Program-made: the position numbers and the translations under genes | Part shown: positions 6,061 through 49,125 of the stretch, one piece after another | Numbering within the stretch: position 1 is the stretch's first letter | How the letters are laid out: each line of letters starts with the position of its first letter | Source: a virus | DNA: 64,000 bases | Reading direction: 5' to 3' (one strand) | Virus record (IMG/VR): IMGVR_UViG_3300037961_005428 | Location: 32,500-96,499 of that record | The notes under the pieces: generated by a model | Told to the model about the DNA's origin: nothing | What the model saw: the letters and a program-made list of their open reading frames with translations, nothing else | The model's database searches: none

Positions 6061-6324
6061 ATGGCTCAGCCGATGGACATCGCTTGGATGGTGTTGAAGC
6101 AAGAAGGCTATGAGGACTATGTGGACCCTACATTAGACCAATCCTCAAGTTATTATCCCCCAATCCAACCTTCGGCACCAAGTCCGGAGCCACAGGAGTA
6201 TTTTTCTTTACCTCAAAGCCCGCAGGCCCGCCTTATGAGACTGTATTCAAAGGCACAGTCTGTTGGCTACGCTAATTTGACAGATGCAGAACGGGACGAA
6301 ATAAGAGCACTGGGTGGTATGTAA
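6061..6324 (+). CDS. Leader-motif protein 1 (PMDIAWMVLKQ)
   Basis: Shared N-terminal motif. Confidence 0.8.
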   Translation: MAQPMDIAWMVLKQEGYEDYVDPTLDQSSSYYPPIQPSAPSPEPQEYFSLPQSPQARLMRLYSKAQSVGYANLTDAERDEIRALGGM

Positions 6325-6326
6325 GC

Positions 6327-6794
6327 ATGCATTCGCTTGAACAGGCTTGGTCTGTCCTCAAGCAGTATGACCCTCAGCGGTCCCTGCATGGGCGCTCGGT
6401 CATGTTTCCACAGATGCGCTCACCTACTGTAATAGTTGAGAACCGACAAGTAGGTCGGGATGGACTCCCTTTGCATACTTTGGGTAGAAACCGCGCTTCC
6501 GGCGGCTATTCACAGATGGACCCCAAGTACAAGGGCCTCTTTACACCTTATCACGAACAAGACCTACCGGGCCCGCTTCATGAAGTGAGGTTCCAGCATC
6601 AGCGTAAAGGCCGGAACCTTACACCCGATGAGCGGCTTGTCCGAGTAACGGCTGACCGCAACCAAGCGATTGACCGGGCCAACCAGTTCCACCAAGACCG
6701 CATTGATGCCATGCAGAATTTGCCCGAGCCCGGCAGTTTTTCACGGCCTCCCAACCCGGACTTCAATCCCTTCACGATGTCCGGTGGTCAATGA
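6327..6794 (+). CDS. Leader-motif protein 2 (SLEQAWSVLKQ)
   Basis: Shared N-terminal motif. Confidence 0.8.
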   Translation: MHSLEQAWSVLKQYDPQRSLHGRSVMFPQMRSPTVIVENRQVGRDGLPLHTLGRNRASGGYSQMDPKYKGLFTPYHEQDLPGPLHEVRFQHQRKGRNLTPDERLVRVTADRNQAIDRANQFHQDRIDAMQNLPEPGSFSRPPNPDFNPFTMSGGQ

Positions 6795-7762
6795 TGTCCC
6801 CCCTTGAAACGGCTTGGTCTATCCTCAAAGCACAAACTGAACTGGGTCAACATCACCCCGACTTCCCTTCTTCACAGGGCCCGGTGCTTGGGTACCACGG
6901 TCGCAATTTCTCAACCAAGTTCAATAACCCCTTTGGCAATTTTTACGACGCCAAGCGTGAGGTGTTTGATGACGACTTTGAGGCTATGCAAGAAGCCGTC
7001 GCCAACATCAAGGCAGCGCAACTTCTTCAAACGGGCCTTGTGCCAACTGACACGGCTGAATCGCAAGTCGGTAGTGGGCGCTTCAATCAATATGACGACA
7101 AGGGCGTACACAATTACGGAGTGGACACGAAGTTCAATCCCGACATCCCTGCCTCTATTTCGGTGGCAGTTGAGCCCCACACGGCGATTGGCTATGCAGA
7201 AGGTGCGAGAGGCTACAAGGACTCAAGCGGTCTGCCCGGCTTCTACGGGATAAGGGCTGGAGCCATGCAAAACGCTTTGCCCTTGGACGAGCCTTTGCGC
7301 CGCTACAAAATAGGTGATACGGACGATTTCATCTACAACAATCAGCGATACCGCTACATCCCGCACGGCATCGCTCCCAACCAAATGGTCCGCTTCGCTG
7401 ATGCTCAATCCATGGAAGAGTTTGATGAAGGCGTCACAAGTCCGTGGTACGGGCGTGAAAGAAAGCGTGCGCCTTCGCGCTTTATTGGAGTCGGCCCCGG
7501 TCAGTTTAGGGGTAGGGACCTTCAACTCTTGGAAGAGGGCAAAATGAATGTGGATGAGTTTAGAAGTCCCGAGCGGGACACTCAAAGGGTGATGGAGTCC
7601 GAACAATTCATTCGTGACCAAATTGCTCAGTATCAGCAACAGCAACTCGCCCAGCAGCAAGCGATGGCCCAACGGCAGGCTGACCAGCAAGCCGAGCAAG
7701 CGTTTAGGCAGCAACAAATGGCAGCGGCACCTCAACAACAACTTCCAATCGGGGTGCGGTGA
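6791..7762 (+). CDS. Leader-motif protein 3; possible ADP-ribosyltransferase-fold domain and Gln-rich tail
   Basis: PLETAWSILKA leader; YHG...GLVP...AIGYA...IPHGIAP pattern. Confidence 0.7.
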   Translation: MMSPLETAWSILKAQTELGQHHPDFPSSQGPVLGYHGRNFSTKFNNPFGNFYDAKREVFDDDFEAMQEAVANIKAAQLLQTGLVPTDTAESQVGSGRFNQYDDKGVHNYGVDTKFNPDIPASISVAVEPHTAIGYAEGARGYKDSSGLPGFYGIRAGAMQNALPLDEPLRRYKIGDTDDFIYNNQRYRYIPHGIAPNQMVRFADAQSMEEFDEGVTSPWYGRERKRAPSRFIGVGPGQFRGRDLQLLEEGKMNVDEFRSPERDTQRVMESEQFIRDQIAQYQQQQLAQQQAMAQRQADQQAEQAFRQQQMAAAPQQQLPIGVR

Positions 7763-7763
7763 A

Positions 7764-7775
7764 GAAACTTTATCT
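7764..7775 (+). promoter_or_regulatory. BRE/TATA-like element GAAACTTTATCT
   Basis: 23-34 bp upstream of ATG 7798. Confidence 0.5.
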
Positions 7776-7797
7776 CTTCGCCCTCACTGCGACACAC

Positions 7798-9000
7798 ATG
7801 GTCGCAGCCTTGGACGCCGCTTGGTCGCTCCTCAAGGCTTTGGATGAGCAGCAGTTGTACACACAAGCCAATCCCGGCCCTGCGGCACCAATGGGCTTCG
7901 GCGATGTCCCATATCCGCAATATGAGCAAATGCGACTCGGCACTGCCCATCCGGCGATATCGGGTTTACTTGAGCGTGTAGAGCACATGAGGGCCAACCC
8001 CTACTCCGGAACTCAAAAAGACCATCCCCAAGATGTTTACGACCCCGAAAAGCGGTTTGAAAGGTTTGGTAGACTTGGTGGAGGTTATGGGAGCCTCATT
8101 CATAGTTTTGGCAACCAGCCTTCTCTCCGTGTAGACTCGGGGCAACTGGCTAATATGATACAGGACAGTGGTATGCGCCATCACTTCGCTACTCAAACAG
8201 ACGAGGAAGCACTTAGGGAAATGCAAGACAACCGGCCAAGGCATGATTACACCCCTCTTCCGTATATACCACGAATGACGGGTAGGGCTGACCCCACAAC
8301 GGTAGAGGGTGTACCCGGTGTCAAATTCGGCCCTCCACCTATCGTTTATGACAACTTCCAAACACGGGATAGCGAGGGAAACTTGGTAACGAGATTTGGT
8401 AGCCAGCAAAAACACCCAAGGTATGATGCCCATTATGATGAGCGACAAAACCCATTAACGGGCGTCATAGATGATTTTGAATTTGGGCCAATTCAATTTC
8501 CTCAAGCGCCAATTCCGGGCGTACCGGGCGGCGCTCACCATCCCAGTCTTGACACACCTCCCGAGGTCGGTATGGTTGGACAAATAAGACCACAACACCC
8601 TTCCGCGAAAGCCTTTGGCGCACCAATCAATATCCTAAGTACATCTCGTGGTAGAAGTGGTGTTGCACAAAGTGGATTTTATCCCCCCTATAGCCAACAC
8701 CTTAGAGACATGCGAGGCCGTGGTGAAGACGATGACATCACTTCGTGGCACCTTTCCCGACAACCTTCTACGGATATTTACCAAGGACATGGTGGTGACA
8801 AAGTTGCCAACTTGCGGGGAGGTGCTGACCCCTTCCCGATGAAACAGTTGGGCCAAGAACTGGCTCAAGGCGCTCGTTCTCCCAATCGCCTAAGTAGGGC
8901 TCTAAGTAGCATTTTTAATCGCTTCCGCCGCCCTCAAGTTAATGAGCCTCAGTTTGATTTCGCCTTTGACGAACCACAGTATGATTTGAGGGGGCTGTGA
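7798..9000 (+). CDS. Leader-motif protein 4 (ALDAAWSLLKA), Pro/Gly-rich
   Basis: Start moved to 7798 on the basis of the motif and promoter; HPAI motif. Confidence 0.8.
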   Translation: MVAALDAAWSLLKALDEQQLYTQANPGPAAPMGFGDVPYPQYEQMRLGTAHPAISGLLERVEHMRANPYSGTQKDHPQDVYDPEKRFERFGRLGGGYGSLIHSFGNQPSLRVDSGQLANMIQDSGMRHHFATQTDEEALREMQDNRPRHDYTPLPYIPRMTGRADPTTVEGVPGVKFGPPPIVYDNFQTRDSEGNLVTRFGSQQKHPRYDAHYDERQNPLTGVIDDFEFGPIQFPQAPIPGVPGGAHHPSLDTPPEVGMVGQIRPQHPSAKAFGAPINILSTSRGRSGVAQSGFYPPYSQHLRDMRGRGEDDDITSWHLSRQPSTDIYQGHGGDKVANLRGGADPFPMKQLGQELAQGARSPNRLSRALSSIFNRFRRPQVNEPQFDFAFDEPQYDLRGL

Positions 9001-9004
9001 TAAC

Positions 9005-9634
9005 ATGAACCCAATAGACGCAGCATGGTCAATCCTCAAGGCTGACCCCAATCTCCGTATGGTGCACGGCGGCGTCTACCCCAACGCCCGTTTCGGTGGA
9101 CGGAGTCAAACCATGCACCCTGCTATCGCTGGGATGATGCAAGGTATCGGTGAGGGAAGAAGTCCCATACCGATGGAAGACATTGAGGGCGTTGATACTG
9201 GTTTTTTTGACACACACACTCCCGCTCGCTACCGAACTTGGCCCCAACCGTATAGTGAAGCACACGGCAATTTAGACAGTGGAGACCATCTGTACTCTAT
9301 GGGAAGCCTCCGGTCCATGGTCCCGGTTAGATACCAAGGCGCTCCCAAAACTCCCGACCGACTTCTTTACGAGATGTCAAAGGTTTCTCCTTACAGAATG
9401 TACGATACTGCAAACCTGCAACAAATTGATGACCCTTCTCAAAATGAAGAGTTTATGCAGGCTTTCAATGCCTATCCCGAGAAGTTGCGTCAATTCTATG
9501 AGCAACAAGGAGACATGGATGTGCACCCGCACACTGTTGCCCGAATAGCCGGTCGCCAAGATTACGGTCGTATAGGTCGCACGGGCAACCCCGACAACAT
9601 TCAAATGATACCCGACATGATGGGAGCGATGTGA
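9005..9634 (+). CDS. Leader-motif protein 5 (PIDAAWSILKA)
   Basis: Shared motif; HPAI motif. Confidence 0.8.
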   Translation: MNPIDAAWSILKADPNLRMVHGGVYPNARFGGRSQTMHPAIAGMMQGIGEGRSPIPMEDIEGVDTGFFDTHTPARYRTWPQPYSEAHGNLDSGDHLYSMGSLRSMVPVRYQGAPKTPDRLLYEMSKVSPYRMYDTANLQQIDDPSQNEEFMQAFNAYPEKLRQFYEQQGDMDVHPHTVARIAGRQDYGRIGRTGNPDNIQMIPDMMGAM

Positions 9635-9638
9635 TAAC

Positions 9639-10007
9639 ATGAGCCCAATGGATGCCGCTTGGGCGATACTCAAGGCTGACTTTTATAGCGATAAGCAACG
9701 AGCCCTTGAACAAGCCCTTGGTCCTGTGTACGGTCATGTAAGAATGGCTCGGGGCAAAGCACAAGAAGAAGCCGAGAGGATGCCGTACTCAACAGACCCC
9801 AAGGTTAGGGCAACACAAGGTCCGCTTGACTATCTGTTTGCGGGAATGGACATTGAGCCGGAGTTGATGAGGCCACCATCACCTTGGCCTAACCCTCCTA
9901 CTTACGCCGCTCCTCCGCCGGCTGACCCCGAGTTCATGGCTCGCATCAAGGCTGACGAAGAAGAGTCGCAACAGCGCAAAACCGAGCGTGAAGAACGGAA
10001 GCGTTAA
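9639..10007 (+). CDS. Leader-motif protein 6 (PMDAAWAILKA)
   Basis: Shared motif. Confidence 0.8.
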   Translation: MSPMDAAWAILKADFYSDKQRALEQALGPVYGHVRMARGKAQEEAERMPYSTDPKVRATQGPLDYLFAGMDIEPELMRPPSPWPNPPTYAAPPPADPEFMARIKADEEESQQRKTEREERKR

Positions 10008-10035
10008 GTAGGGGATGCCCAACATAGGGCACTAA

Positions 10036-10116
10036 GGGAGAGGCGGTACCCTCCAGTCGTGTGTTCTTTTGGGCTCTGAATCACTTCTCGCATTTCTTCA
10101 TTCCGCCGCCTCTCCC
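10036..10116 (+). ncRNA. Candidate small RNA closed by a perfect 11-bp stem
   Basis: gggagaggcgg 10036-10046 pairs with ccgcctctccc 10106-10116; TTAAGTA about 26-32 bp upstream. Confidence 0.35.
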
Positions 10117-10133
10117 CCCTTTCGGTGAAAAGT

Positions 10134-10268
10134 ATGCCACGGCGCAAAAGTCCTGCTTGCCCTTATTGTCAGCAACAACCTACTCAGCGACTGTACTCCA
10201 AAGCCGGCGGTACTTTGCACGGCGTGGCTTGGCACTGCCCCGTGTGCGAGTGCATGTGGAAACTTTGA
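10134..10268 (+). CDS. 44-aa zinc-ribbon protein (CPYC...CPVC)
   Basis: Hand translation MPRRKSPACPYCQQ...; GGTGA SD. Confidence 0.7.
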   Translation: MPRRKSPACPYCQQQPTQRLYSKAGGTLHGVAWHCPVCECMWKL

Positions 10269-10294
10269 TGTAGCCACCCATGCTGTCACGCCAC

Positions 10295-10687
10295 ATGGCG
10301 GATGCTATAGAGTGGTTGACCGACGAGGAAATCATCGGAAAGACCGACTGGTCCGATGTGGCGTTTTGCGATTGTTGCTCGCCACTTGAGATTTCTATGG
10401 CCGTTGTCAAGGCGAAGCGAAAGTCCAAGCCTTTTCACGGCTACAATCCAAACAAGCACGCCAAGACCGGTGGGCTGAACGCCAAGGGTCGGGCGGCTGC
10501 GAAGCGCAAGACTGGGGCCAATCTCAAGCGCCCCGTCACCAAGAAGCCCAGCAAACTCAAGCGAGGTAGCAAAGCCTCCAAGCGACGCAAGTCATTTTGT
10601 GCCCGCATGTCGGGTGTCAAAGGTCCGACCAGCAAGAAAGGTAAACTCACTCCCAAGGGAGCCGCTTTGAAGAGGTGGAACTGTTGA
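10295..10687 (+). CDS. Lys/Arg-rich protein (resembles DUF6321-type phage domain, from memory)
   Basis: GGLNAKGRAAA...RRKSFCARMSG; acidic leader ending CDCC...VVK|A. Confidence 0.75.
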   Translation: MADAIEWLTDEEIIGKTDWSDVAFCDCCSPLEISMAVVKAKRKSKPFHGYNPNKHAKTGGLNAKGRAAAKRKTGANLKRPVTKKPSKLKRGSKASKRRKSFCARMSGVKGPTSKKGKLTPKGAALKRWNC

Positions 10688-10878
10688 ACTGTGACTGTGA
10701 GCATTGCTTTGGTATGCAGACGGCTTGGGACCTTCTTGAGAAGAAATTGTGCCCGGCTGGTAAAGCGGCGGCGAAGCGGAAGTTCAAGGTGTACCCATCG
10801 GCTTACGCTAACGGATGGGCCGTACAATACTGCAAGGGCAAGTTCCGTGGCAAAAAGAAAGGGGGCAAAAAGAAATGA
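10675..10878 (+). CDS. Small basic protein with leader motif (MQTAWDLLEKK)
   Basis: KFKVYPSAYANGW motif common in marine phage basic proteins. Confidence 0.7.
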   Translation: MELLNCDCEHCFGMQTAWDLLEKKLCPAGKAAAKRKFKVYPSAYANGWAVQYCKGKFRGKKKGGKKK

Positions 10879-11423
10879 ATCCAATGGACGCAGCGTGGAA
10901 TGTGCTAAAGGCACTACCAAGTCGTGAAGTGGTGCAGAACAGATACCGTTTTACTGGACAAGGGCACCCATTTTTGGATGAAAAAGGTAATCCCACCCCC
11001 GAAACCAAAAGAGATTTGGTTGAGCAAATGGGGATTGGAACAAGGCACCCTGCTTTGAATCCAGCGCATGTCATTGAAAGCGTGAGTGGCAGACCCACCA
11101 ATATCACAGAAGGTTCACACCTTAGCCCAATAGAGCCCACTGACATTTTGCGCTATCCTACGGGCGACAGCATAACCGGTGCTGAAACTGGCAGAGCGGA
11201 GTTGGAAAACACGCGTCAACGACGAATTAACGAAAGAAGTCAACGCCGTTTGACGGGAAATACATCCCCTCCAAGGCTCATTGACCATCATCGTTACACA
11301 CATTTGCCCCCCGGCAACTACTATGGTGGCAACCTTCCAAAAAATAGCGCACTCAGCGACGAAGAAATGGAAAACTTGCGTCAACAAGCGCAACAGATGC
11401 CCTTTTCGTATGAAGGTCAATGA
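10875..11423 (+). CDS. Leader-motif protein (PMDAAWNVLKA)
   Basis: Start moved to 10875 (ATGA overlap); HPAL motif. Confidence 0.8.
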   Translation: MNPMDAAWNVLKALPSREVVQNRYRFTGQGHPFLDEKGNPTPETKRDLVEQMGIGTRHPALNPAHVIESVSGRPTNITEGSHLSPIEPTDILRYPTGDSITGAETGRAELENTRQRRINERSQRRLTGNTSPPRLIDHHRYTHLPPGNYYGGNLPKNSALSDEEMENLRQQAQQMPFSYEGQ

Positions 11424-11432
11424 GGGATAAAA

Positions 11433-11639
11433 ATGCACGCTCTTGAACATGCTTGGCGCATCATCAAGGGCAAAGAGGATGCTCCAAATTATCGCAAAGC
11501 CACGGGGCCAAAGAAGTGCGGCAACTGCAAGGCTTGGGATTCTTCAAAAACTGACGACCCTATGACGGGGTATTGTGAGTGGTACGATTTTACTTGTCGT
11601 GCCGACCATGTGTGTGATGCTTGGGCGGGGAAGAAATGA
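11433..11639 (+). CDS. Leader-motif protein with HiPIP-like four-Cys domain
   Basis: ALEHAWRIIKG; CGNC...GYC...CDAW. Confidence 0.7.
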   Translation: MHALEHAWRIIKGKEDAPNYRKATGPKKCGNCKAWDSSKTDDPMTGYCEWYDFTCRADHVCDAWAGKK

Positions 11640-12220
11640 GTGAACAGTGCCCTTGTTGCAGCGTGATGGTTGTCAAAGACCTTAACCGCTGGTTCAAGGA
11701 GAAGTGGGTGGATGTGTCTCGCAAAGACAAGGACGGCAAGCACCCACCTTGCGGGCGCAAGAAGGCCAAGAAGGGGAGCAAAGGTTACCCTAAGTGCCGG
11801 CCGTCAGTCAAGGTGTCAAGCAAGACGCCGAAGACCTCCGGTTCTATGACTGAGGGGCAGAAGCGTGCGGCGACCAAGCGTAAGCGGTCCAAGAAGCAAG
11901 GAGTTGGCGGAAAACCGACGATTGTCAAATCACTGGTGCTCAAGCGACCTGTCAGTCCCGAGGCCAAGCGTCACAAGTTGGAATACGACACCAAGTACGA
12001 GTCTACGCCCGAGCGTGTCAAGTATCGGGAAGAACTTAAGCGTGAACGCCGACATAGAGGTATTGACGGTAAAGGGGGTCCGGACATGAGTCACACGAAA
12101 GACCACACCCTTGTCGCCGAAGACCCTCACACCAACAGAGCCCGCCACTTCAAAGAGCGAGGCACACTCAAGGGCGACCCTATGGACATCGCTTGGCTCC
12201 TTGTCAAAGGTGAGTGGTGA
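11636..12220 (+). CDS. Basic two-domain protein with the leader motif at its C-terminus
   Basis: LNRWFKEKWVD...PCGR...YPKCRP; DMSH...NRAR (degenerate HNH-like); ends DPMDIAWLLVKGEW. Confidence 0.75.
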   Translation: MSEQCPCCSVMVVKDLNRWFKEKWVDVSRKDKDGKHPPCGRKKAKKGSKGYPKCRPSVKVSSKTPKTSGSMTEGQKRAATKRKRSKKQGVGGKPTIVKSLVLKRPVSPEAKRHKLEYDTKYESTPERVKYREELKRERRHRGIDGKGGPDMSHTKDHTLVAEDPHTNRARHFKERGTLKGDPMDIAWLLVKGEW

Positions 12221-12465
12221 TGACCGAATACCCCTTTGACAGTTGGGGCTTTCAGTTCGTGCTCACGCTGGACGACCACCTGCAAATCATGCAGGACTTA
12301 CTTGACCACTACGCTGACATCATTGACATGCTGGAGGACGCCTGCGACAACAACGATGCGTTGCTCGCCGACCTCGTGGACGCTCAAGAGCAATACATGA
12401 TTTTGCGACAGGCTTATGAAAAAATGAAACATGGGGGTAATTGGTTGCATGCTGAGTCCAACTGA
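12220..12465 (+). CDS. Acidic helical hypothetical protein
   Basis: ORF coupled to neighbours. Confidence 0.6.
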   Translation: MTEYPFDSWGFQFVLTLDDHLQIMQDLLDHYADIIDMLEDACDNNDALLADLVDAQEQYMILRQAYEKMKHGGNWLHAESN

Positions 12466-13573
12466 CGCCGCTTGGTCTGTCCTTGAAGAAGGGCACCGTG
12501 TGGACAAGGCCCTTCCGTTCCTCATTCCGGCGGCGATGTTAGCCTATGGCGGCTATCAAGGTGCGAAAAATGTCAAGGAAAATCGTATCACTGACCCCTT
12601 TTTAGGGGTGGTCGGTACCGAAGGCAATGATTCACTCGGTAGTAACCTTGCCGAGTTTGGGACAGGTTTTGCACAGGGCGTTGTCCCCGTCAAGGGTGGA
12701 GGCTTTTTGGCCCGGAAGTTTGGTGGCCGCCGTGCAGCAAAGCGTGCAGCAGCACGAGAAGCCGCAGAAAAGGAGGCGGCTGAGGCTGCGGCCCGCCATC
12801 AAGCGTTGTCTGCTCAACAGCGAAGGGGTGTGCTACAGCGGGAGAATCCCGAAGTTGGCTATGTGTTTGGTGAAGTAGCCCCTTATGTTTCTCCTTCCCA
12901 ACTTGGTGCTGTTCGCCAAACGATGAACGCTGCCCAAGCACGGGCTGCCCGGCTGGCTCCGAGAGCACAAGCACCAGTCGCTCCGTTGACACTGGGTCAG
13001 CGTGCAAAGTTGGTTGCAGCCACAGGCGCTGGTGCAGCCACTGCTTATGCTCCCGAAATTATGATGGCACTTGGGCTCGCTGGGAGTCCGCCCACCAGTA
13101 CAGAATTTGGAGGATTTGGTGCAACAGGCACAGGCGGTTTCGGCGCAGGGCAGGGTGGTCAACAGGGCTTCCAACTCGCAGGTCAACAGTCCGGCGGCGT
13201 TGGTGGTGTGCAAAATGTCGGTGTGAGCGGTATGGCTGACCACGACATTTTCCAAGGCAAGCAATTCCAGTCGGCTCCGACATCATCAAATATGCAAGCC
13301 CCTTCCATCAAACAGAAGGGGACCCCTATGTCGCTCGGAAACAATCTCATCAACTCCACCTTGAGTGTAATGGAACGCAACATTATGAAAGCCAGTGTGT
13401 GTGAACGCTGTGGCAAGAAAGGCTGCGTCAACAAAATGCACTGCATGGCGAAAGCCGATGATGGCAAAAAGAAAAAGCCAGCCCACGGCATGGTCATTGT
13501 CATTGGCTCCAAAGCCGGCCCGGGCCCGTCAACGAACGGCAAGCGGGACGACAAAAAGGACGACAAAGAGTGA
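12449..13573 (+). CDS. Leader-motif, Gly/Ala-rich putative internal or ejection protein
   Basis: MLSPTDAAWSVLEE...VDK|A; hydrophobic Gly/Ala segments. Confidence 0.7.
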   Translation: MLSPTDAAWSVLEEGHRVDKALPFLIPAAMLAYGGYQGAKNVKENRITDPFLGVVGTEGNDSLGSNLAEFGTGFAQGVVPVKGGGFLARKFGGRRAAKRAAAREAAEKEAAEAAARHQALSAQQRRGVLQRENPEVGYVFGEVAPYVSPSQLGAVRQTMNAAQARAARLAPRAQAPVAPLTLGQRAKLVAATGAGAATAYAPEIMMALGLAGSPPTSTEFGGFGATGTGGFGAGQGGQQGFQLAGQQSGGVGGVQNVGVSGMADHDIFQGKQFQSAPTSSNMQAPSIKQKGTPMSLGNNLINSTLSVMERNIMKASVCERCGKKGCVNKMHCMAKADDGKKKKPAHGMVIVIGSKAGPGPSTNGKRDDKKDDKE

Positions 13574-13665
13574 TACTCAAGGGCTGTTTCGCTCCCTCTC
13601 AGCGTCCAGCCCACCTTAGAAGGTTTTATTTGGTCGTGTATTTTGGGGTTATATGAGAGGATTGT

Positions 13666-14202
13666 ATGTCAAGCGGTAGCCAAAGCGTTGACCAAAGTGA
13701 AATTCGGCTCATGGGGCTTATCCTCATGCAGTCGCTAAATGTAGGACTTGCCATCGGTGTATTCAACGCCGGCATTTGGATTGATTTAGAGAGCACGATG
13801 CTGAATGCATTTACTTATGCGATGGGTGCGTTTTTCGTCCAAGGCATAGCGTATTACTTCTTCAAAATGTTCTTCCAACAGGGCATGGACGACAAGGCTC
13901 GCCAGTCCGAGATGGAGCGAGAGCGGCGCAACCGCTACCGGGCTATGGAGATGACTTTTGAGCGCCGCCGTCAAGACATGGAACTTCGCATGCAAGAGGC
14001 ACAACTTGAACAAGAGTTGCGCTGGATGGAAAACAACCCCGGAAAAATGCCACCGATGAGCCTTTCTGACCCTATTTCGCTTGACACTGGCAACTTTAAT
14101 CCCGAAAAGGGCGATAAGACCCTTTCATTGGGTGTCTCCTTTGACGAGGAGAAGCCACTCACCAATCGTGGGGCTGATGGCAAGTTCAAGAAGAAGGAGT
14201 GA
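13666..14202 (+). CDS. Two-TM membrane protein with coiled-coil tail
   Basis: Two hydrophobic segments followed by an E/R/Q-rich helix; TTTTATT box upstream. Confidence 0.8.
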   Translation: MSSGSQSVDQSEIRLMGLILMQSLNVGLAIGVFNAGIWIDLESTMLNAFTYAMGAFFVQGIAYYFFKMFFQQGMDDKARQSEMERERRNRYRAMEMTFERRRQDMELRMQEAQLEQELRWMENNPGKMPPMSLSDPISLDTGNFNPEKGDKTLSLGVSFDEEKPLTNRGADGKFKKKE

Positions 14203-14444
14203 GGCCTGTGGGCTGGCTGTTCAAAACGCCAAGTGATGATGCAACGGAGTCAACGCTTCGTGCTATTCACATGGCGAACACTTTGGACACCGCTTATGAG
14301 CGCACATGGGGCTGGGTTAAAACGGTCATTTTCTCGTTTATCAGCGCCCTGTCTATCAGTGCCTTTGAGTATCACAACGATTGGAGTTTTTGGGAGCATA
14401 CTGTTAACTGGCTTGCCAACGAGGTTATGGGTTGGTTTGAATGA
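14199..14444 (+). CDS. Small single-TM protein (start may be GTG 14208)
   Basis: WVKTVIFSFISALSISAF hydrophobic stretch. Confidence 0.7.
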   Translation: MRPVGWLFKTPSDDATESTLRAIHMANTLDTAYERTWGWVKTVIFSFISALSISAFEYHNDWSFWEHTVNWLANEVMGWFE

Positions 14445-15157
14445 GTGCAGCAGCGGGCTCTGCCATGGTGGGTGGCGTTATTTTTGCCAAGGAACTTTAC
14501 CATTATTGGGTTCCCCGCAGGGTCGGTGTGTATGGTCCACCGCTGGCTGGAAAGACAACGCTGGACAAATACTTGACCACGCCCGGTGAAATGGAAGACA
14601 TTCCTCTTGACAAGCGCACAACTCACACAAAGGTGCTTGGAAAATTCCTTCTTCCCCGTGCCAGTCGTAAGCGTGTGAAGTACAAGGGTGAAACTCGTGT
14701 GATTCATTCCGCAGATATGGGCGGCGAACAGCGGTTTTGGAACCTGTGGGTGGACGATATGGTCAATCGGGGCGTAGAAGCAGTGGTGTTCATGTTTGAT
14801 GACCGTGCAAATGCAGGTGGAGATACCACCGTTGACGCTGTTGGCGGCTTCAAATTCTTGGTGGACGCTCTCATTTACCGTCAATATCGCTATAGAAACC
14901 TACGAAGTTGGTTGAAAGGCAAGAAGTACACGCCCAAAGTCATTCTTTTGGTTGCTAACAAAGCCGATAAGTGGTGGGATGAGCAGGCAAATACGCTGTG
15001 GCAGCAGCAGCGTCTTGGAGAACATCGCATTTTTGACCCGTTTCGGGAAGACCTTATTCGTCTACAAAAGGCCGGTATACCTACACGAAGGGGTATGATG
15101 GCCACCCGAATTGGCTGGAATGTGGAAAATACGATGGTGGATTTGCTGTCAACATGA
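14441..15157 (+). CDS. Small Ras-superfamily (Arf/Rab-like) GTPase
   Basis: G1 GPPLAGKTT, G3 DMGGEQRFWNLW, AVVFMFD strand, G4 LLVANKAD, G5-like MATRIGWNV. Confidence 0.9.
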   Translation: MSAAAGSAMVGGVIFAKELYHYWVPRRVGVYGPPLAGKTTLDKYLTTPGEMEDIPLDKRTTHTKVLGKFLLPRASRKRVKYKGETRVIHSADMGGEQRFWNLWVDDMVNRGVEAVVFMFDDRANAGGDTTVDAVGGFKFLVDALIYRQYRYRNLRSWLKGKKYTPKVILLVANKADKWWDEQANTLWQQQRLGEHRIFDPFREDLIRLQKAGIPTRRGMMATRIGWNVENTMVDLLST

Positions 15158-15168
15158 GGTGAACGAAC

Positions 15169-16152
15169 ATGAATGGATTACGACGCTACGGGCAGGTCCC
15201 GCAACAGGGAAATGGCAACTTATACGCTCTTGACGCTAATCAAATGGCGGCTTTGTCGCAACAAGGGAGCCTTTCGCACGAACAATTGATTGAAATGCAA
15301 GGTGCGCAGCAAGGAATGCGAGAAGCGGCTGCAAAAAGCAACATTGAGGTGCCAAAAGTCAATTTTTACCCCAGTCGGCACCCCGATTCACGAAAAGCAC
15401 GCAAAAAAGACATCAAACAGGCCCGAAAACTGCTCAAACCGAGCAAAAGAAGCATTTTCAACCCCTTACGGTGGGTTGGAATGAAGTATCGGTACAACAA
15501 ATTGCATGAAAGGTGCGTTGTGGACGGCTGTGACTGCGTTGAACTCATCAAATACGACAATTTGTATGCTAAAATCTGTGATGAGGACACTGGAGAGAGC
15601 CTTTGGGACCTTTATTGGACAAATCCGGTCACAGGAGAGGTTCAAGCCTTCGTAGCGGCTGAAAATGTCACTGATGGGCGCAAAATGAGGGGTACATACT
15701 GCCCCGAACACCTTCATTTGTACCATTTATTGTGTAAATGGGAGGATGAGAACGACAAAGTGCGCCTTAACAGCAAATCCGGTATGCGAGAAATGGTCAA
15801 AAAGGGCGTTTCTACGGTCGCTGTACCCATTTCAATGGTCAAAAAGAAGGACAATACACCCCAATTTTTGGCCAAATATGAGCCTTTTTTCAAGCAATTA
15901 GAGCAGGATTCACGCCAAACAAGCGGTATTTCCATCCTTCATTACCAAAATCCGGTATCAAAAATGAATGATGTGACCATGATTGTGTTTGATTTGCGCA
16001 TTTTTCAGCAGGAATTAGGTCAAATTGACCAACAAAACCCGCCCAGCATCCTTGATGCAGTGGGTAAAATGGGTATTACCCTCCCCGATTCCCCACCTCT
16101 CCAACAGGTTGAAGAAGAGAATGGCCCTCAGTTTGGCCAAGGGCAGGCTTGA
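15169..16152 (+). CDS. Hypothetical protein with Cys/His cluster
   Basis: CVVDGCDC...CPEH; GAGGTGA SD. Confidence 0.75.
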   Translation: MNGLRRYGQVPQQGNGNLYALDANQMAALSQQGSLSHEQLIEMQGAQQGMREAAAKSNIEVPKVNFYPSRHPDSRKARKKDIKQARKLLKPSKRSIFNPLRWVGMKYRYNKLHERCVVDGCDCVELIKYDNLYAKICDEDTGESLWDLYWTNPVTGEVQAFVAAENVTDGRKMRGTYCPEHLHLYHLLCKWEDENDKVRLNSKSGMREMVKKGVSTVAVPISMVKKKDNTPQFLAKYEPFFKQLEQDSRQTSGISILHYQNPVSKMNDVTMIVFDLRIFQQELGQIDQQNPPSILDAVGKMGITLPDSPPLQQVEEENGPQFGQGQA

Positions 16153-16166
16153 AAGCAGGTGAAAAC

Positions 16167-16796
16167 ATGTTATTCGGAAACAATCAACAGCAAAGCGGTG
16201 CACTGAACCTTGGTGCGCCAGCCAATACTCCACAACAGCCCTTCCAATTCGGTCAGCAGCCGCCCAGTGCCATGCAAAACTTTGGCCAAAGTGCGTTTGG
16301 TGGCAGTATGATGCAGGGTATGGGTATGAATCCGGGCATGATGCAGCAACCCGTGGCCCCGCCCAGTGAAACTGAAATTCAATTGGCACTCATGCGCTCT
16401 GTCGCACCTATGGACAGATTCGTGGCATCAGCCCAAATGGCCACGCTTGTGCAGATGCTGAACGACCTTGTTAGTTTCTCAGTGCTGGAAGTGATGAAAA
16501 ACGCCACTTTTGTCATCAACGAGGACGATGGTACCATGAAATTGGATGTTACTTCACTGCCTTCCAACCTTCAAACCATGAGTGCGGAGAATGTCACCAA
16601 TCAATTTAACCAACTTCAAAGCACCAGTCAGCAAAACATCCAGCAAATGGAGATGCAGCAGCAACAAATCCTTGCTATGGCTCAGCAATCGCTGATGGGT
16701 GGGGCACTTGCAGCGGCTATGGCTGACGAAGGTATGATGCAAAAGGTGGGTGGCGGAGTTGGCTCCTTCGCTCGTAGTATGTTGGGAGGACGATGA
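16167..16796 (+). CDS. Gln/Met-rich protein with amphipathic C-terminus
   Basis: Start at ATG 16167 after AGGTGA SD. Confidence 0.75.
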   Translation: MLFGNNQQQSGALNLGAPANTPQQPFQFGQQPPSAMQNFGQSAFGGSMMQGMGMNPGMMQQPVAPPSETEIQLALMRSVAPMDRFVASAQMATLVQMLNDLVSFSVLEVMKNATFVINEDDGTMKLDVTSLPSNLQTMSAENVTNQFNQLQSTSQQNIQQMEMQQQQILAMAQQSLMGGALAAAMADEGMMQKVGGGVGSFARSMLGGR

Positions 16797-16797
16797 T

Positions 16798-17049
16798 ATG
16801 GTAGATAGTGGTATACCGGGATTTTACTATGGCTTTGCCATGTCAACACGCGACATTTTTGCCCCAAAGAAGAGCGTCATTGTAGATATGGTGATGGTAC
16901 AGGTTTTGACCATCATCGTCACCCTTTCACTGGTGTTGTTGACGGGCTCGGGTAAGTTGTCTTCGGACACAATGGCTTACATGATGGGAGCCATGATGGG
17001 TGCGATTTTGCTTGCTACGGGGATTTACACCCGTATTTCACAACAATAG
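16798..17049 (+). CDS. Small two-TM protein (holin-like topology)
   Basis: Two hydrophobic helices; GGAGG SD. Confidence 0.7.
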   Translation: MVDSGIPGFYYGFAMSTRDIFAPKKSVIVDMVMVQVLTIIVTLSLVLLTGSGKLSSDTMAYMMGAMMGAILLATGIYTRISQQ

Positions 17050-17301
17050 TCACCACTTGTCTTGTGGACAGGTGGATGATTTGAGCGAGGCTTTTGCTCG
17101 CATGAAGCATCCACAGTCTTTGCACCGTGTACCTGTCCAACTTGGGCACTCTTGACAGATAGCGAGTCTGCGACTCCGCTCTTCGGGACTTACTTTTCGT
17201 CGCAAAGCCACATCTCTTGCGGCCTTTGATAGCGAAACAGCCGTCTCCTTTGTCATCGGGATTCCGGCGACTTTGACATCCATTTTGGGCAGTCTTGGCA
17301 C
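17050..17301 (-). CDS. Cys-rich small protein (DUF6171-like, from memory)
   Basis: RLAICQEC...RCKDCGCF...CPQDKW; lone minus-strand gene in the late region. Confidence 0.7.
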   Translation of the reverse strand: MPRLPKMDVKVAGIPMTKETAVSLSKAARDVALRRKVSPEERSRRLAICQECPSWTGTRCKDCGCFMRAKASLKSSTCPQDKW

Positions 17302-17359: not shown

Positions 17360-18070
17360 ATGGGAGGTCGGCAGACCAAGCGTTCTTGCCCTTTTTGCCA
17401 AGACCCCGACCGTGACAAACTTGAGATGAGCATTGCTCAAGGCATCGCTGATGTTCGCACCATGGACCGCGATAAAGGCTGGCGGGCCAACACGGCAGAA
17501 CGCCACATGAGAAACCACGCTGGTGAAAATTTAGAAGGTTCCAACTATCGCTGCGTGATATGCACGGACGACCACCGAAGCATGTACGAAGTCGCTTATT
17601 TTGACGAGGGCATGACCACCGAAGAGATTGCCCAAGAGTTGAATTGCAGTGAGGCTACAGTCTACAAGCACATGAAAGAGCACTTCCAGCCCATCGTCAA
17701 GCAAAGTGCATCGGCTATTGTGTCCATTAAGGTGGGTCAAGAGGCTGATATCCTGCGACACAACACTGAGCGCCTCAATGAAAAGTTGTCTCGCTACATG
17801 GACGAGGTCAGCATCCACGATGACGGGGCTGTTTCGGACATGGTTAAGTTGAGCAAAGAGATTCGTGAGTCCATCAAGGACTTGACTTCGTTCCAAAAGG
17901 CGTGGGTTGAACCCGAGGAGAAAATGGTCGCAAACACCATCAACATCCTCAAAGTTGAAATGGCGAAAGAAAGTCCCGATACTTGGAAGCGTGTCAAAGA
18001 AGCCTTGCTCACACAGGAAGGCGACGAAATTGACATCAGCGGCATGTTAGAGCAGGAGGATAGCGCATGA
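17360..18070 (+). CDS. Putative terminase small subunit (tandem Zn-finger/HTH units plus coiled coil)
   Basis: Two CxxC...HTH...HxxxH units; helical oligomerisation-like tail; upstream of TerL. Confidence 0.5.
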   Translation: MGGRQTKRSCPFCQDPDRDKLEMSIAQGIADVRTMDRDKGWRANTAERHMRNHAGENLEGSNYRCVICTDDHRSMYEVAYFDEGMTTEEIAQELNCSEATVYKHMKEHFQPIVKQSASAIVSIKVGQEADILRHNTERLNEKLSRYMDEVSIHDDGAVSDMVKLSKEIRESIKDLTSFQKAWVEPEEKMVANTINILKVEMAKESPDTWKRVKEALLTQEGDEIDISGMLEQEDSA

Positions 18071-19119
18071 CCAGTAGCATGGGTACCGGCACTGACACCC
18101 GCATGTACTCCCCTCGGTCCGAATCGGACCACCTGTACTCGGACGGTGAAGACTACCGACACGGTAAGGGCTCGCCCGAACACGAGGACGAGATGAAAGA
18201 CAAGAAAATGAAGGAGAAGGAGGAGCGTGTCAAGACCCGTGAACTCCCCCATCTCAAGTTCAACATTGAATCGGCCGAGCAGGACATGGGTATGCCTGCT
18301 CCTATGCCGATGGACGAGCCACAAGAGGACATGATGGAAGAAACGCCCATGGCTCAGCAGGGTGAACTTAGCGCTCTTACCGGTTCTCCGGGCACCGGCT
18401 CACCCGAAGCCAGCATTAGTTTTGGTGCACAGGCGCTCAGCCCGTATGGTCAGCAGACCATCATGGCCAGCGAGCCGATGGACATCGCTTTCCAACTGCT
18501 CAAGCGAGATGGCGACTTCTCCACTCAGCCGTTCAAGGCTCCCCCCGGTGGCCGCTCTCGTCAAAAACAAGCAACATCCATGCGTGCTAAGCGACAGGCT
18601 CGCACACTCAGCCCTCGCACGGAAAAGGGTGGCATGGTTAATGCTGATAAAGCCGTTGAGATGTCTCACCTTGGCATTGATACCAAGCAACCCCTGCGTT
18701 TGTTCCCCGACAAATACCGTCAAAGCCTTGGTACTCGGGCCATGCAGGCCAATCGTGGTAACATTGCGCTCCCCTATCAAGGGCACAACATTGAGCGCCG
18801 CACTCCTTTCAAGCCCATGACCATGAAGTCCGAACTTCAAGAAGTGCAAATGCTTCTCAAGTCGGCTTCGGGCTACCTTCACCTCAGTCAATTGCGCAAC
18901 ATTCTGCGAGACTTGAAGCGAGCCATCGCTCGCAAGGAGTCAGCCAAGAAAGCGCCGCCGTCCGGCAAAGGCACTTCCAAAGAAGGCGAGGCTGGGCACC
19001 GTGATGGTGAAACCACTCAGCCCCAAGGGCGCACTGACAATGTAGAGGCTGATGAGTTCCGTTCTGCCGGTGCCTCCGGTCACCAGTTTGTGAGCAGGGG
19101 TAGCGGGAGGACGGCTTGA
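18067..19119 (+). CDS. Hypothetical head-region protein with internal leader motif
   Basis: EPMDIAFQLLKR separates acidic and basic halves. Confidence 0.75.
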   Translation: MTSSMGTGTDTRMYSPRSESDHLYSDGEDYRHGKGSPEHEDEMKDKKMKEKEERVKTRELPHLKFNIESAEQDMGMPAPMPMDEPQEDMMEETPMAQQGELSALTGSPGTGSPEASISFGAQALSPYGQQTIMASEPMDIAFQLLKRDGDFSTQPFKAPPGGRSRQKQATSMRAKRQARTLSPRTEKGGMVNADKAVEMSHLGIDTKQPLRLFPDKYRQSLGTRAMQANRGNIALPYQGHNIERRTPFKPMTMKSELQEVQMLLKSASGYLHLSQLRNILRDLKRAIARKESAKKAPPSGKGTSKEGEAGHRDGETTQPQGRTDNVEADEFRSAGASGHQFVSRGSGRTA

Positions 19120-28052: not shown

Positions 28053-31000
28053 GTGTCGGACGACATCCTTCTCAAAGACGAGTTTGATGTGGCTGACCAA
28101 GTCACGAGTGCTCAAACTCCTTCCCCCAACTTAGAACCTGTAGTCACCGGGCGAGAAGGTGAATACCCTGCACCGGATTTTGAAATCAGTGCAGGGACGC
28201 AAATACCCGAAACACTGGCCCCCGCGCACCCTCATGCTGAACGCATGACCGGGATTATGGACTTCTCCGAAATACCGGGTCGCTGGACATATGAAGGAGC
28301 CAACGAGCCATCCTTTGCACAACAGTATTCCGATGCTGGTCATTTTCCCGACACTTCTGCTCTCCATCCCGAGTTCAACCCACTGTGGTCCGGCCACCAC
28401 CCCGAATTGGAAATTGCTCCTTTGTTTATCCGCAAGGTCCGTTCGTTTTACGAATCCGGGCAGTCGGCAATTGATGCACAAAAAGAAATGAATTGGGTTC
28501 TGCATCACATGACCTCCGGCAGTGGTGGCCAGCGCAATCCGATTCTCAACGCTACTGCTATGGGTGCTTTGGGCAGTGAGCATACCTCTCATGCACTATA
28601 CGAGAACAATTACAATGATTGGTTGGACACCCCTATCTATGCAGACGGTGGTACCGAGCGAGATGAAATGCAATACTACCTTGATAATGGCGCTTCACAA
28701 GAGGTAGTTGATGCGGTGTTTAGAAAGAAACACCTCGTGGAGTACGAGAAAAAATGGCAACACGACCCCGAGTGGAAGTTGGGTGAGAAGGACTACTACC
28801 ACGGCATGGAGTGGCTGAATCATGCCGAGCGAGAAGAAGCCTACAAGCACATGTACACCAAAGGTACAGACTCAATTTCTCATCAAAGCATACCTTCTCT
28901 TGACCAAAAATTTTCTGTACCTCGTGCTAAATACAGCAGGGCTCAGCGTGAATCTCCTGTGCACAAGCACTTCACAAGAGAGCCCATGAATACAGGTGAG
29001 CCCATTCAATCACCTATACTCAAAGACCCCTCGGTCACCGACAGTCGCCGCTTTATCTTTGAGCGCCTTTCCGGTAAGCGGGGTGAAGGATTTTATCAAG
29101 GGCTCATGAACCACCACACTTATCACACTGCAATTGAGCGTCAGCGGCGTAGCGAGTACAAAACGGCAAAGGAACCAAAGTACGGCTATCAGTTGAATAT
29201 CAATCGGGACACAAGAGAAGTTTCAATGAAGCCGATTTCATCAAAGCACTTTGAGCCCAATAAAGAGGGCAAACTTACACCTCGGGGTTTGGGTCGGAAA
29301 GAATTGATGCTTATGGCGGGTGTAGAGTACGACAAAGAAAGAGACGAGTACAAATTTTACCCGGAAGGTCAACATCCATTTTACAGCAGTTGGAACCCCA
29401 AGGCCAGCAATGTCACTTGGACAGAAGGCCAAATCAAAGACTTCTTTACCGTCATGGATGAGGAGCGCAACGCTTTCAAAATGCAGAATGATGTAGCAAA
29501 TGCTCTCCAATTTCATGTCAACCATGCGGTTGCTACAGAAGGTACTGGTGCTCATCCCGAGATGTACACAGGCGGTGACCATAGTACACTCTCGTCGTGG
29601 TGGAGTTTGCACGGTATTGGTGGTCACGGTTCAACTTACAGCAAAAAGCGTGATATGACCCATAGTGCGTTTGAGTTCCCTAATGGTACAACCATTCACA
29701 CACAGGGTCCTGTACCTTTGAACCCCGAGTTCATTGAAGCCGAGGAAGAATCCTTTGAAGAAAAAATTGCCCGCAAGAAAAGGGAAGCGAAGGAAGCGGT
29801 AAAGGAAGGCCCGAGAGGCACCCCCACCACTGTTCTACCCCTTGAGTTTCAATCATCCGACAATGTTGAAGAGCAAAGAGAGGCAGTTAACCTTTCACAA
29901 AGAGGCGAAGGCGGGGCAGTCGTTGCACGAGAAGGAGCCGAGGGACTGGCTGCGCCGTTCGGTGAGCCCCAAGTCAACGCTATGCTGTCAGACGGCACCT
30001 ACATCGTAGCCGACCCGACCAACATCAAAGTCGGTATGCTTCCTCATTCTGTTGCACCAAGGCGACGATTTGGCGGTAACGCTCACGCTGCCCGTAACAG
30101 CAACACTTGGGCATCCTCTTATCACAATAAGCAGTTCTTAATTCAACATGACATGCTCGCTACTGACGCCACCGAACAAGGGCAAGCAGCGGCACGAAAG
30201 CACAAGGCGAAGCATTTGTTTGGGGAACACAACTCGCTGGTCAACTTAAACAACAAATTTCGTCGCCAAAACAACACAGATACTGACCGCTATGCAGCGA
30301 AGTATCATCATCTCATTCCAAGCATCATGGGCTTCGTTGCTCCCTCGGCCAATCCTCAGTCGGGCATCCATCATGCTCGTAATATGCCCGAAAACGCTCA
30401 CTACACAACGGCAACTGCTGCTGACTTTCAACGGATTTTAGTTTCCCCCACAGCGCAAGAAAAGGTCTTGCGAGAAGAGGGAGGTAATTTGCCTATACGA
30501 GCGGGCATGCCAGTTCCAAAAGAAGTGAGGGAAGTTGAAGAAAGACTTGAAGAGGCCCAAAACAAGTTTAGGCGATTGCATGAACTTTACGACCAATCTG
30601 CGAAAAGTTCCAAAGTGTCGGAAGAAGAGAAAGAGAGAATGATGGCGAGCATCAAATCCGAGATGCTAACACAAGAGGCACTGATAGACCAATTGAAAGA
30701 CGAGCGAGATGAAGTTGCTGAGGAAAAGTTCCCGCAGGACAACTATCATCGCCAGCAAATCAACCTGTTAGAGCAAGAGTTAGACCATGCTCACGCTGAC
30801 TACCTTGATGCAAAGGAAGAATTGGATGAACTGCTTGAATACAAAGAAGAGCGTAATGACAACAGTGCACACCTCCAAGAAAAAATTGATGCCAGCGCAG
30901 AAAAGGTTTCACAACACTACGGACTTATCAAAGAGTTGGAAGAACAGTTGGACCAACACTTCGTGAGTCCAAAAACAGAGGCGGCACGCAATAAAGAATT

Positions 31001-47829: not shown

Positions 47830-49125
47830 ATGATTCCACTGCGACTGATTTTTGGCGAAATTGACCGCCATGAAGTCTATGTAGATGCTACTGACATTAA
47901 CATCGTAGCCGAGCGGACAGTGGCAGCGTTCCCTGTACCTATCAGTTCGTACCGGGCAGCGATTGATACCAACATTCCACAAATCATTATCAGCATACAG
48001 GGCATTATCCAAGACGACCCTATAAGTGCTCTTTCTACTTCTGCCCCTTCTTCACTTGCTATAGATTTCTCTTCTCTATTGCCGACAGCAGTGCCTGTTG
48101 TCAACACACAGAACAACGCCTTACAGACCAACCTTCAAACTTCGGTCGTTGGCTTATTACCGGCCTATTGGCGCTACAATTCGCCCAACGGAGGCTACTC
48201 GCTTCTTACGGGGAATTTTCTGCGACTGCAATTCACTGCTTCAATGTCCAACCGAGCAGGCGGCTCGGCAACGCCCTCTGTCAATGCCTCGTACAATTTA
48301 GCAGAAAACACAGGACCAGTGCAAATTGATGTCCCAGTCGGCGGTGTTCTTTATGCCCCAAGTAATGGCAATCCTGCCAGTACACTTGCACTCATCGTAC
48401 AGGATGCTCTTCAATTGACCACTGAAATTACCAAAACAAGTAGTGTGGACGGACTGGGTGGAAAGCGAGTAACGGATGCTTTTAACAGCGCCGTTTCGGA
48501 CGCCACACTGACATTAACGGACGCCTATATCAATGACGGTGTGCGTTATACACCATACTTTTCTATGAGAACGGGGCTTGGGAGAAATGTTTCTATTACC
48601 GTGCAAAAGCGCACTTCGGACGGGTTAACAGACATAACAATGAGTGCTGGCGATAAAGCCCAAAATTTGCTTGGCTTACTGGCAAACAGCACCAAAGACA
48701 AAGACCTCTTGCGAGGTATTCAAATTCCTTACAACTCTCTCATCACCTCCAACGAAATCTCACCTGTGGTTCGGAACTTCTTTTTGACCGCTGGTAAAGT
48801 CTCACCTTTGCAAAAGGGGTCGCTTCGCAACACTCGTCCCAGCACCCAACCAATGGATATTGGTGCTTTTGAGCAAAGTGGGCAAGAAGAATCGCCCGGC
48901 TTTTTCAGCGGTGTTATGGAAACTGCCCTTGGGTTTTCAATAGACGGCGTTGGCGATGTTATTGGAGATGCTTGGACTAAAGTCACTGCGCGAGGTGCGA
49001 CGCTTAACAGTGGCGGTATCTCAGTCATACCCGAATCATTTCACATGACCAAAGAGGGGGCGGAAAACTACTACAGGTTTGATTTACAAGTAGTCAGTGC
49101 GGACCATGTAATAGGGGTGATTTGA
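47830..49125 (+). CDS. Baseplate/distal-tail-like protein, paralogue B
   Basis: SAGDKAQNLLG...GIQIPY...RNFF. Confidence 0.6.
   Translation: MIPLRLIFGEIDRHEVYVDATDINIVAERTVAAFPVPISSYRAAIDTNIPQIIISIQGIIQDDPISALSTSAPSSLAIDFSSLLPTAVPVVNTQNNALQTNLQTSVVGLLPAYWRYNSPNGGYSLLTGNFLRLQFTASMSNRAGGSATPSVNASYNLAENTGPVQIDVPVGGVLYAPSNGNPASTLALIVQDALQLTTEITKTSSVDGLGGKRVTDAFNSAVSDATLTLTDAYINDGVRYTPYFSMRTGLGRNVSITVQKRTSDGLTDITMSAGDKAQNLLGLLANSTKDKDLLRGIQIPYNSLITSNEISPVVRNFFLTAGKVSPLQKGSLRNTRPSTQPMDIGAFEQSGQEESPGFFSGVMETALGFSIDGVGDVIGDAWTKVTARGATLNSGGISVIPESFHMTKEGAENYYRFDLQVVSADHVIGVI

Follow-up and report, generated by a model that had tools for sequence, protein, structure and literature searches.

A co-conserved six-gene block around a small GTPase in a magrovirus-like genome and its relatives

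Small GTPases of the Arf type count among the hallmark organisers of membrane traffic in eukaryotes, and the only archaeal ones reported to date, to our knowledge, are those of Asgard lineages and ArvA. The present analysis concerns a block of six genes (g1 to g6), the third of which encodes a small GTPase resembling the Arf type. It is located in a 64,000-nucleotide stretch of viral DNA, hereafter referred to as the window, which corresponds to bases 32500-96499 of the 96.5-kb linear viral record IMGVR_UViG_3300037961_005428 of IMG/VR.

Two groups of viral systems share features with this block. Giant eukaryotic viruses encode Rab, Ran and Ras GTPases that they recently captured from their hosts. 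Like these, g3 is a virus-encoded Ras-superfamily small GTPase, and its best matches in the BFVD viral structure library are all Rab, Ran or Ras proteins of such viruses; unlike these, which are recognisable as Rab, Ran or Ras, the g3 family has no recognisable cellular source and belongs to archaeal viruses. As for the phage lysis cassettes, that of lambda (S-R-Rz) lies upstream of the terminase genes and that of P2 (Y-K-lysABC) between the head and tail genes, and we know of no lysis cassette that contains a GTPase. The block resembles them as a multi-gene set of small membrane proteins among late genes, located beside packaging genes or in between those for head and tail. Moreover, at the level of architecture only, the size of g6 and its layout of two transmembrane (TM) segments and a charged tail recall the class II holins, and g1, with two TM segments and a charged tail, also has the build of a holin-like membrane protein. 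The block differs from the cassettes in having no holin, endolysin or spanin match and in being far more conserved than lysis genes usually are.

Among cellular systems, ArvA is an Arf-like GTPase with an N-terminal helix that brings about the formation of vesicles in Haloferax, with a zinc-ribbon protein as its partner (PMC10927574). It is encoded in the ArvABC (OapABC) operon, where ArvB is a DUF2073 protein and ArvC a DUF2072 zinc ribbon (PMC10927574). Common to both systems are an Arf-like GTPase with a hydrophobic N-terminal helix, an operon including a Cys-rich partner and, as proposed for the viral block, action at an archaeal membrane. The viral block, in contrast, has no DUF2073 or DUF2072 protein (Pfam search of g1, g2 and g4-g6, E ≤ 0.1), adds three membrane proteins and a Gln/Met-rich protein, and is viral rather than cellular. 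Its GTPase shows no sequence link to cellular GTPases detectable by HMMER, and was compared with ArvA through the published features of the latter. In the literature searched, no description of such a six-gene GTPase block was found, and the magrovirus literature searched mentions no GTPase; Caudoviricetes, small GTPases and Arf were found together only for Arf genes in mobile-like regions of Asgard genomes.

Gene content and conservation of the block

IMG/VR was scanned with the GTPase, which provided 73 related loci, and the genes of the block were located in these by tblastn. In the window, six co-oriented and tightly coupled open reading frames (ORFs), all present as described in the initial annotation, occupy positions 13666-17049 of the + strand, with successive gaps of -4, -4, +11, +14 and +1 nucleotides (nt):

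13666..14202, + strand: g1, 178 amino acids (aa), two TM segments and a long charged coiled-coil-like helix; found in 70 of the 73 loci
14199..14444, + strand: g2, 81 aa, one TM segment, overlapping g1 and g3 by 4 nt each; found in 72 of the 73 loci
14441..15157, + strand: g3, 238 aa, Arf-like small GTPase
15169..16152, + strand: g4, 327 aa, soluble Cys/His protein
16167..16796, + strand: g5, about 209 aa, Gln/Met/Gly-rich protein
16798..17049, + strand: g6, 83 aa, two TM segments; found in 70 of the 73 loci

Two of the starts differ from those first proposed. The alignment of orthologues moved that of g5 from TTG 16149 to ATG 16167 and that of g6 from GTG 16750 to ATG 16798 (83 aa), the former codons being less likely.

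Genes g1-g6 occur in the same order in essentially every one of the 73 loci that reaches them, with median identities of 57, 53, 67, 62, 58 and 43%, respectively. Since the order is kept in essentially all the related viral loci, the six genes adjoin each other beyond chance, and the co-conserved unit initially predicted is borne out. Long contigs with the capsid gene and without a GTPase match all stop short of the expected position, ca. 21 kb upstream of the capsid gene, and the single capsid-bearing contig reaching this position does carry the GTPase. In four near-complete genomes, identity to the window ranges from 59 to 70% for the GTPase, from 54 to 75% for the terminase and from 72 to 83% for the capsid protein. 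Judged by these sequences, the block is a core, strongly constrained part of the virus clade, because the identity of its GTPase is comparable to that of the terminase.

The genes located upstream of the block (6061-13573) share a peptide tag, ..D.AW..LK. This leader was initially reported as absent from the six genes, and the tag is indeed found on none of their proteins. In three loci (L034:6721-7534, L033:6710-7078 and L035:6733-7164), tagged genes are inserted between the GTPase gene and g4, which indicates that the block tolerates cargo genes in its interior. Each of these insertions is followed by a small gene that also occurs, between the GTPase gene and g4, in about one third of the related loci (e.g. 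L037:6726-6902; L038-L046, L050, L052, L053, L057 and L061). Its product of ~55-75 aa carries a motif (SLRxxIPxWIV...GDKIxW) resembling the AbrB/SpoVT-type swapped-hairpin DNA-binding domain, and it is possibly a small regulator inserted in the operon.

Beyond this clade, an exhaustive HMMER search of 1.84 billion proteins gave only 78 cluster representatives at E ≤ 1e-3, all of them members of this GTPase family, and hence no recognisable cellular GTPase at that threshold. Synteny with haloviruses, which had been put forward as a check, could not be found, the GTPase remaining unmatched among 50,697 records of isolate phages and viruses, a set that includes haloviruses. Three contigs of 8-16 kb (L077, L078 and L079), binned as metagenome-assembled genomes (MAGs) of Maricaulis, Promethearchaeati and Parvibaculum, carry the viral GTPase at 59-65% identity along with the viral block. 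They are probably mis-binned magrovirus fragments, and a cellular source of the GTPase was dismissed on account of their short length and viral content.

The block was also found in more distant viral lineages. The P0125-like lineage (13 loci, contigs up to 97 kb) has all six genes with the order kept. In the P0129-like lineage, the longest record of which is G005 (110 kb; L083-L089), g1-g5 are in order and a g6-like 2-TM protein is encoded a few genes further on. The P0149-like lineage (at least 140 loci) displays the layout 2-TM protein, 1-TM protein, GTPase, g4-like and g5-like protein. There, hhalign supports homology for g4 (E 2.9e-6) and, with a weak but specific match in L228, for g5 (E 6e-5), whereas g1 and g2 have no homology support and match the window proteins in layout only. 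In one P0149-like locus, L228, 1.2 kb separate the capsid gene from the block downstream of it. A five-gene core is thus passed on as a unit through three different genome contexts. Pattern scans for P0126-like and P0166-like GTPases returned no viral contigs.

Concerning G005, this genome encodes a family B DNA polymerase (PolB), has a thermosome gene adjoining the g1-g5 block and contains a 36-kb stretch in which giant ORFs of up to 2955 aa, none with a Pfam family, follow one another. It resembles the "group D" magrovirus-like elements, whose virion genes are unknown (PMC5434244). In L228, a 164-aa protein with a C-terminal SAP DNA-binding domain is encoded between the capsid gene and the GTPase block (L228:4487-4981).

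These distributions bear on whether the six genes share a function at all. The GTPase could take part in a soluble process (e.g. translation, the handling of nucleic acids or the regulation of chaperones) next to membrane proteins that are independent of it. The neighbouring thermosome gene of G005 would suit this explanation, as would the five partner proteins (g1, g2, g4, g5 and g6), which match no known family or fold and thus offer no biochemical tie to the GTPase. However, the fixed g1-g2-g3-g4-g5 order, with overlapping stops and starts, across four lineages and three genome contexts is hard to explain other than by a joint function, which is favoured for this reason; genes without a shared membrane function appear very improbable.

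The GTPase and its partner proteins

Both the motifs and the small G-domain fold identify g3 as a genuine Ras-superfamily small GTPase (P-loop, TRAFAC class). The motifs G1 (GPPLAGKTT), G3 (DMGG), G4 (NKAD) and G5 (MAT) follow each other in order, and 25 relatives with identities as low as 24% show no or almost no variation at residues G32, G37, K38, D92, G95, N173 and K174. Foldseek, run on the AlphaFold model (predicted local distance difference test, pLDDT, 89), indicated a Ras-superfamily G-domain and nothing finer. In the structure comparison, Arf-family proteins occupy ranks 1-33. At the profile level, the best match of the g3 family is GerdArfR1, an Asgard Arf-related protein (PDB 8OUN; bioRxiv 10.1101/2024.02.28.582541), with an E-value of 1.2e-7 and an alignment that spans the N-terminal helix, followed by Arl8 (E ~1e-4). 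The closest structural and profile neighbours of g3 are therefore Arf-family proteins.

The likeness to the Arf family (Arf1, Arf6, Arl1, Arl3 and Arl8, and Asgard GerdArfR1, 8OUN/8OUM) resides in the switch II GG, the Trp at +11, the Asp after strand 4, the NKxD G4 and (C/M/S)A(T/K) G5 motifs, and a helix before the G-domain, matched in the alignment by the N-terminal one of GerdArfR1. Switch II of g3 reads D-M-G-G-E-Q-R-F-W-N-L-W; its GG and Trp +11 are common to Arf, Arl8 (DIGGQPRFRSMW) and Asgard ArfR, while Rab-like proteins have an Arg at +12, and its Arg at +6 is shared with Arl8. On the other hand, g3 has 238 aa vs. ~180, with two lineage-specific inserts (~55-60 residues; switch I region and residues 121-165), and it is encoded by a prokaryotic virus. 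In addition, the catalytic Gln is replaced by Glu, Gly2 is absent, and the helix (residues 2-23 in the model, with no charge before K17) is hydrophobic but not clearly amphipathic. Of the Arf-like switch II first described, the GG and the Trp are thus shared with Arf and Arl8, and the position of the catalytic Gln holds a Glu; the predicted N-terminal helix is hydrophobic as announced, although only weakly amphipathic.

No Pfam family matches g3 at E ≤ 0.1, the curated threshold of PF00025 not being reached. Among its relatives, Pfam Arf is the family matched most often (11/25), every time at E ≥ 0.0048 and below threshold. The phylogeny against Arf, Rab and Asgard proteins suggested at the outset was computed for the viral proteins alongside 22 small GTPases from a single Asgard genome and four outgroups. 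It places the viral clade on a long stem outside Arf and Rab, not nested within the Asgard Arf-like proteins, and is uninformative as to either grouping, neither being rejected by the approximately unbiased (AU) test (viral + Arf, p 0.41; viral + Rab, p 0.40). We read g3, from its sequence and its model, as a protein that looks most like an Arf-type switch and would work like one, short of established membership of the family. As a result, the initial label of Arf/Rab-like GTPase keeps its Ras-superfamily and Arf-neighbour content and loses that of Arf or Rab membership, given the sub-threshold Pfam matches and the uninformative tree.

As for the partners, the hydrophobic segments attributed to the three membrane proteins were confirmed (two in g1, one in g2 and two in g6). 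Those of g1 lie at residues 15-33 and ~48-70 and are followed by a charged helix, a conserved LxLG motif and a basic tail. In g2, a conserved soluble N-terminus (FKTPSDDATE...) precedes the hydrophobic segment (residues 38-56) and a Trp-rich C-terminus. The g6 protein has a conserved DMxMVQ motif where its first TM segment begins and a C-terminal Y-x-R-I-S (..YTRISQQ). The g5 protein has a PPSE motif, a small domain at its centre (..LQTMSAENV..) and a C-terminal segment rich in Gly, Ala and Met. In g4, a CVVDGCDC ... TYCPEHLHLYH cluster, in which C116, C178, H181 and H183 are invariant in the close clade, is accompanied by a basic motif (KKDIKQAxKLLKPxKR). A zinc site in g4 is plausible from its sequence, but unproven because the His residues are not retained in the G005 branch.

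Searches with Pfam (E ≤ 0.1), PHROG and PADLOC assigned none of the six proteins to a family beyond chance-level Pfam matches. With the same three resources, holin, endolysin and spanin families had no match in the six genes, the rest of the window not having been exhaustively scanned. Virus-associated pyramid proteins and spanins were consequently dropped as identities for the block proteins, as was a defence system, since PADLOC found no defence family and its single chance-level match was disregarded. At the profile level, no PDB sequence matched g1, g4 or g5; protein-cluster look-ups of g4 and g1 led to their own viral clusters or to nothing. The 645 relatives of g4 are all unnamed and come from the same marine sources. 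A complex predicted for g4 residues 17-290 with the GTPase, GTP and Mg obtained a score of 0.01, which counts neither for nor against binding. Roles as GTPase-activating protein (GAP), guanine nucleotide exchange factor (GEF) or coat are not supported for any of the partners.

The pairing of the GTPase with a Cys/His protein, reminiscent of ArvA and its zinc-ribbon partner (PMC10927574), raises the question of a host takeover at the membrane. The virus would have hijacked or replaced a host small-GTPase pathway (ArvA-like vesicle formation, cell division or cell shape), or would block superinfection. The persistence of the block across lineages with differing structural genes is in line with this. 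Nevertheless, neither a DUF2073 nor a DUF2072 partner is present, the 78 representatives recovered from 1.84 billion proteins revealed no similarity to cellular proteins, the host's phylum is not listed among the groups carrying most ArvA homologues (PMC10927574), and the late-gene position of the block fits poorly. We consider such a takeover unlikely.

Genome context and proposed function

The structural genes of the virus, i.e. large terminase, portal, prohead protease, SU10-type major capsid protein and tail tube gene, are on the + strand. Elsewhere, the genome encodes PolB, a clamp-loader-like AAA ATPase, a PD-(D/E)XK nuclease and an SNF2 helicase; among isolate viruses, the best full-length matches of PolB are haloarchaeal tailed viruses. 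Because this content fits the published description of magroviruses (~100 kb, linear, divided into a replicative and a structural block, group A having an SNF2 helicase; PMC5434244), the genome is magrovirus-like, that of a ~100-kb tailed virus of marine archaea. The six-gene block sits in the + strand structural half, flanked by tagged virion-cargo genes and by packaging genes, a position that points to late expression. The late context is supported by the proximity of the block to the capsid gene in L228 and to packaging genes in the window, and by the cargo genes within it in L033-L035.

Our leading guess, put forward tentatively and by analogy, is that the block provides a GTP switch anchored at the membrane and acting late, in egress or in the remodelling of the membrane. 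The six genes would form one late-expressed viral module working at the host cytoplasmic membrane, their proteins presumably associating physically. The g3 protein would act as a GTP/GDP switch held at the membrane through its hydrophobic N-terminal helix, g1, g2 and g6 would supply the membrane-embedded part, and g4 and g5 may be soluble regulators or effectors. Binding or hydrolysis of GTP would then time or drive a change in the membrane, most likely its local disruption or remodelling, by which finished virions would be released from a host probably bounded by a membrane and a surface layer only. The egress role draws on gene position, protein architecture and analogy. Of the GTPase-timed egress, lysis or remodelling machine initially imagined, it is the co-conservation of the genes for a GTPase and membrane proteins that has been established, and not the egress or lysis function itself.

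Several observations weigh against this proposal. Lysis genes normally diverge fast, and the block is conserved at the level of the terminase. Nothing recognisable as a lytic enzyme, a member of a holin family or a pyramid protein is encoded by the six genes. In G005, the block is present without a detectable terminase or capsid gene and without recognisable head or tail genes, so its role need not be tied to the release of tailed virions. The catalytic Gln position of the GTPase, Glu in g3, is occupied by E, Q, D, H or A across the family. Finally, the hydrophobic moment (muH) of the N-terminal helix is 0.25, which is not above that of shuffled sequences (median of 0.32 in 71 relatives; 0.42 for Arf1), and such weak amphipathicity does not support a reversible membrane binding in the manner of Arf. 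Membrane association of the GTPase is suggested by the hydrophobic character of the helix.

The gene position also has another possible explanation. T4 starts head assembly on the inner membrane, and the block might likewise form a membrane-anchored assembly or replication platform, a site for head assembly or DNA packaging at which the GTPase would be an organiser and not a lysis timer. The P0149-like block directly follows the capsid gene, among head genes, that of the window immediately precedes the packaging genes, and the block is as strongly conserved as genes of morphogenesis. By contrast, the virion tag of the neighbouring genes is on none of the six proteins, the block also occurs in G005, where neither head nor tail genes are recognisable, and no similarity to a known assembly factor was found in Pfam or PHROG. 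On balance, this platform is held to be improbable, at about the same level as the host takeover discussed above.

To come back to the membrane switch for egress or remodelling, the egress system of archaeal tailed viruses is unknown and the release proteins of head-tailed archaeal viruses are uncharacterised according to reviews (PMC10791045). The block is a candidate for how archaeal tailed viruses reshape or break the host membrane. In a bolder form, which we regard as doubtful, it might be the missing egress machine of the tailed viruses of wall-less or S-layer-only archaea. The GTPase and the three membrane proteins would open or pinch the membrane on a GTP-set timer, according to a lysis principle unrelated to both holin-endolysin systems and virus-associated pyramids. 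Magroviruses are abundant worldwide (PMC5434244), and a core module conserved at terminase level in them bears on how marine group II archaea die; if the proposal is true, an egress principle would be carried by some of the most abundant archaeal viruses of the surface ocean. The picture of Arf-type GTPases in archaea would also be widened by a third branch, which is carried by viruses, highly divergent and linked to membrane proteins. The system is compact, with six genes, and amenable to expression and testing.

Boundaries and neighbouring genes

The block is delimited by the following elements:

13581..13612, + strand: GC-rich inverted repeat (GGGCTG...CAGCCC), read from the sequence, after the upstream tagged gene
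13624-13631, + strand: TATA-like box TTTTATTT, ~35 nt upstream of the g1 ATG
13655-13661, + strand: Shine-Dalgarno-like element GAGAGGA, upstream of g1
17050..17301, - strand: convergent Cys-rich gene (zinc-ribbon-like, CxxC...CxxCxC), 83 aa, flanking the block outside the operon

The inverted repeat and the TATA-like box are both contained in the spacer of 92 nt upstream of g1. The former is likely a terminator or boundary element, and similar GC-rich hairpins are found ahead of the TATA-like box in many of the related loci. The separate TATA-like box noticed at first was recovered; of 58 distinct upstream regions from related loci, 32 have the pattern YTTTAW at the corresponding position, vs. 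3.8% of background 50-nt windows. At the 3' end, the block is closed by the convergent Cys-rich gene, which is kept on the minus strand at the same place in 61 of the 73 loci. Tight packing, a conserved TATA-like box and a convergent 3' gene together agree with the view that the six genes make up a transcription-unit-like block of their own, and they are probably co-transcribed. Two scans unsuited to archaea stayed close to the shuffled level, with 4 sigma-70 promoter-like sequences vs. 3.5 expected and 8 intrinsic terminator-like sequences vs. 4.3 expected.

Directly after the block and its Cys-rich flanking gene, a 236-aa protein (17360-18070, + strand) is encoded that is kept in all 73 loci. 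It combines a CxxC at its N-terminus with a helix-turn-helix of the sigma-70 region 4/LuxR type, and is a candidate for the small terminase or for a late regulator. It is followed by a 350-aa protein (18067-19119, + strand) with an internal copy of the virion tag (EPMDIAFQLLKR, residue 139), whereas the tag is at the C-terminus of the protein encoded at 11621-12220. Two very long ORFs were also observed on the + strand, one of 1943 aa in the head region (28053-33884) and one of at least 4959 aa (49122-63998), which continues past the end of the window.

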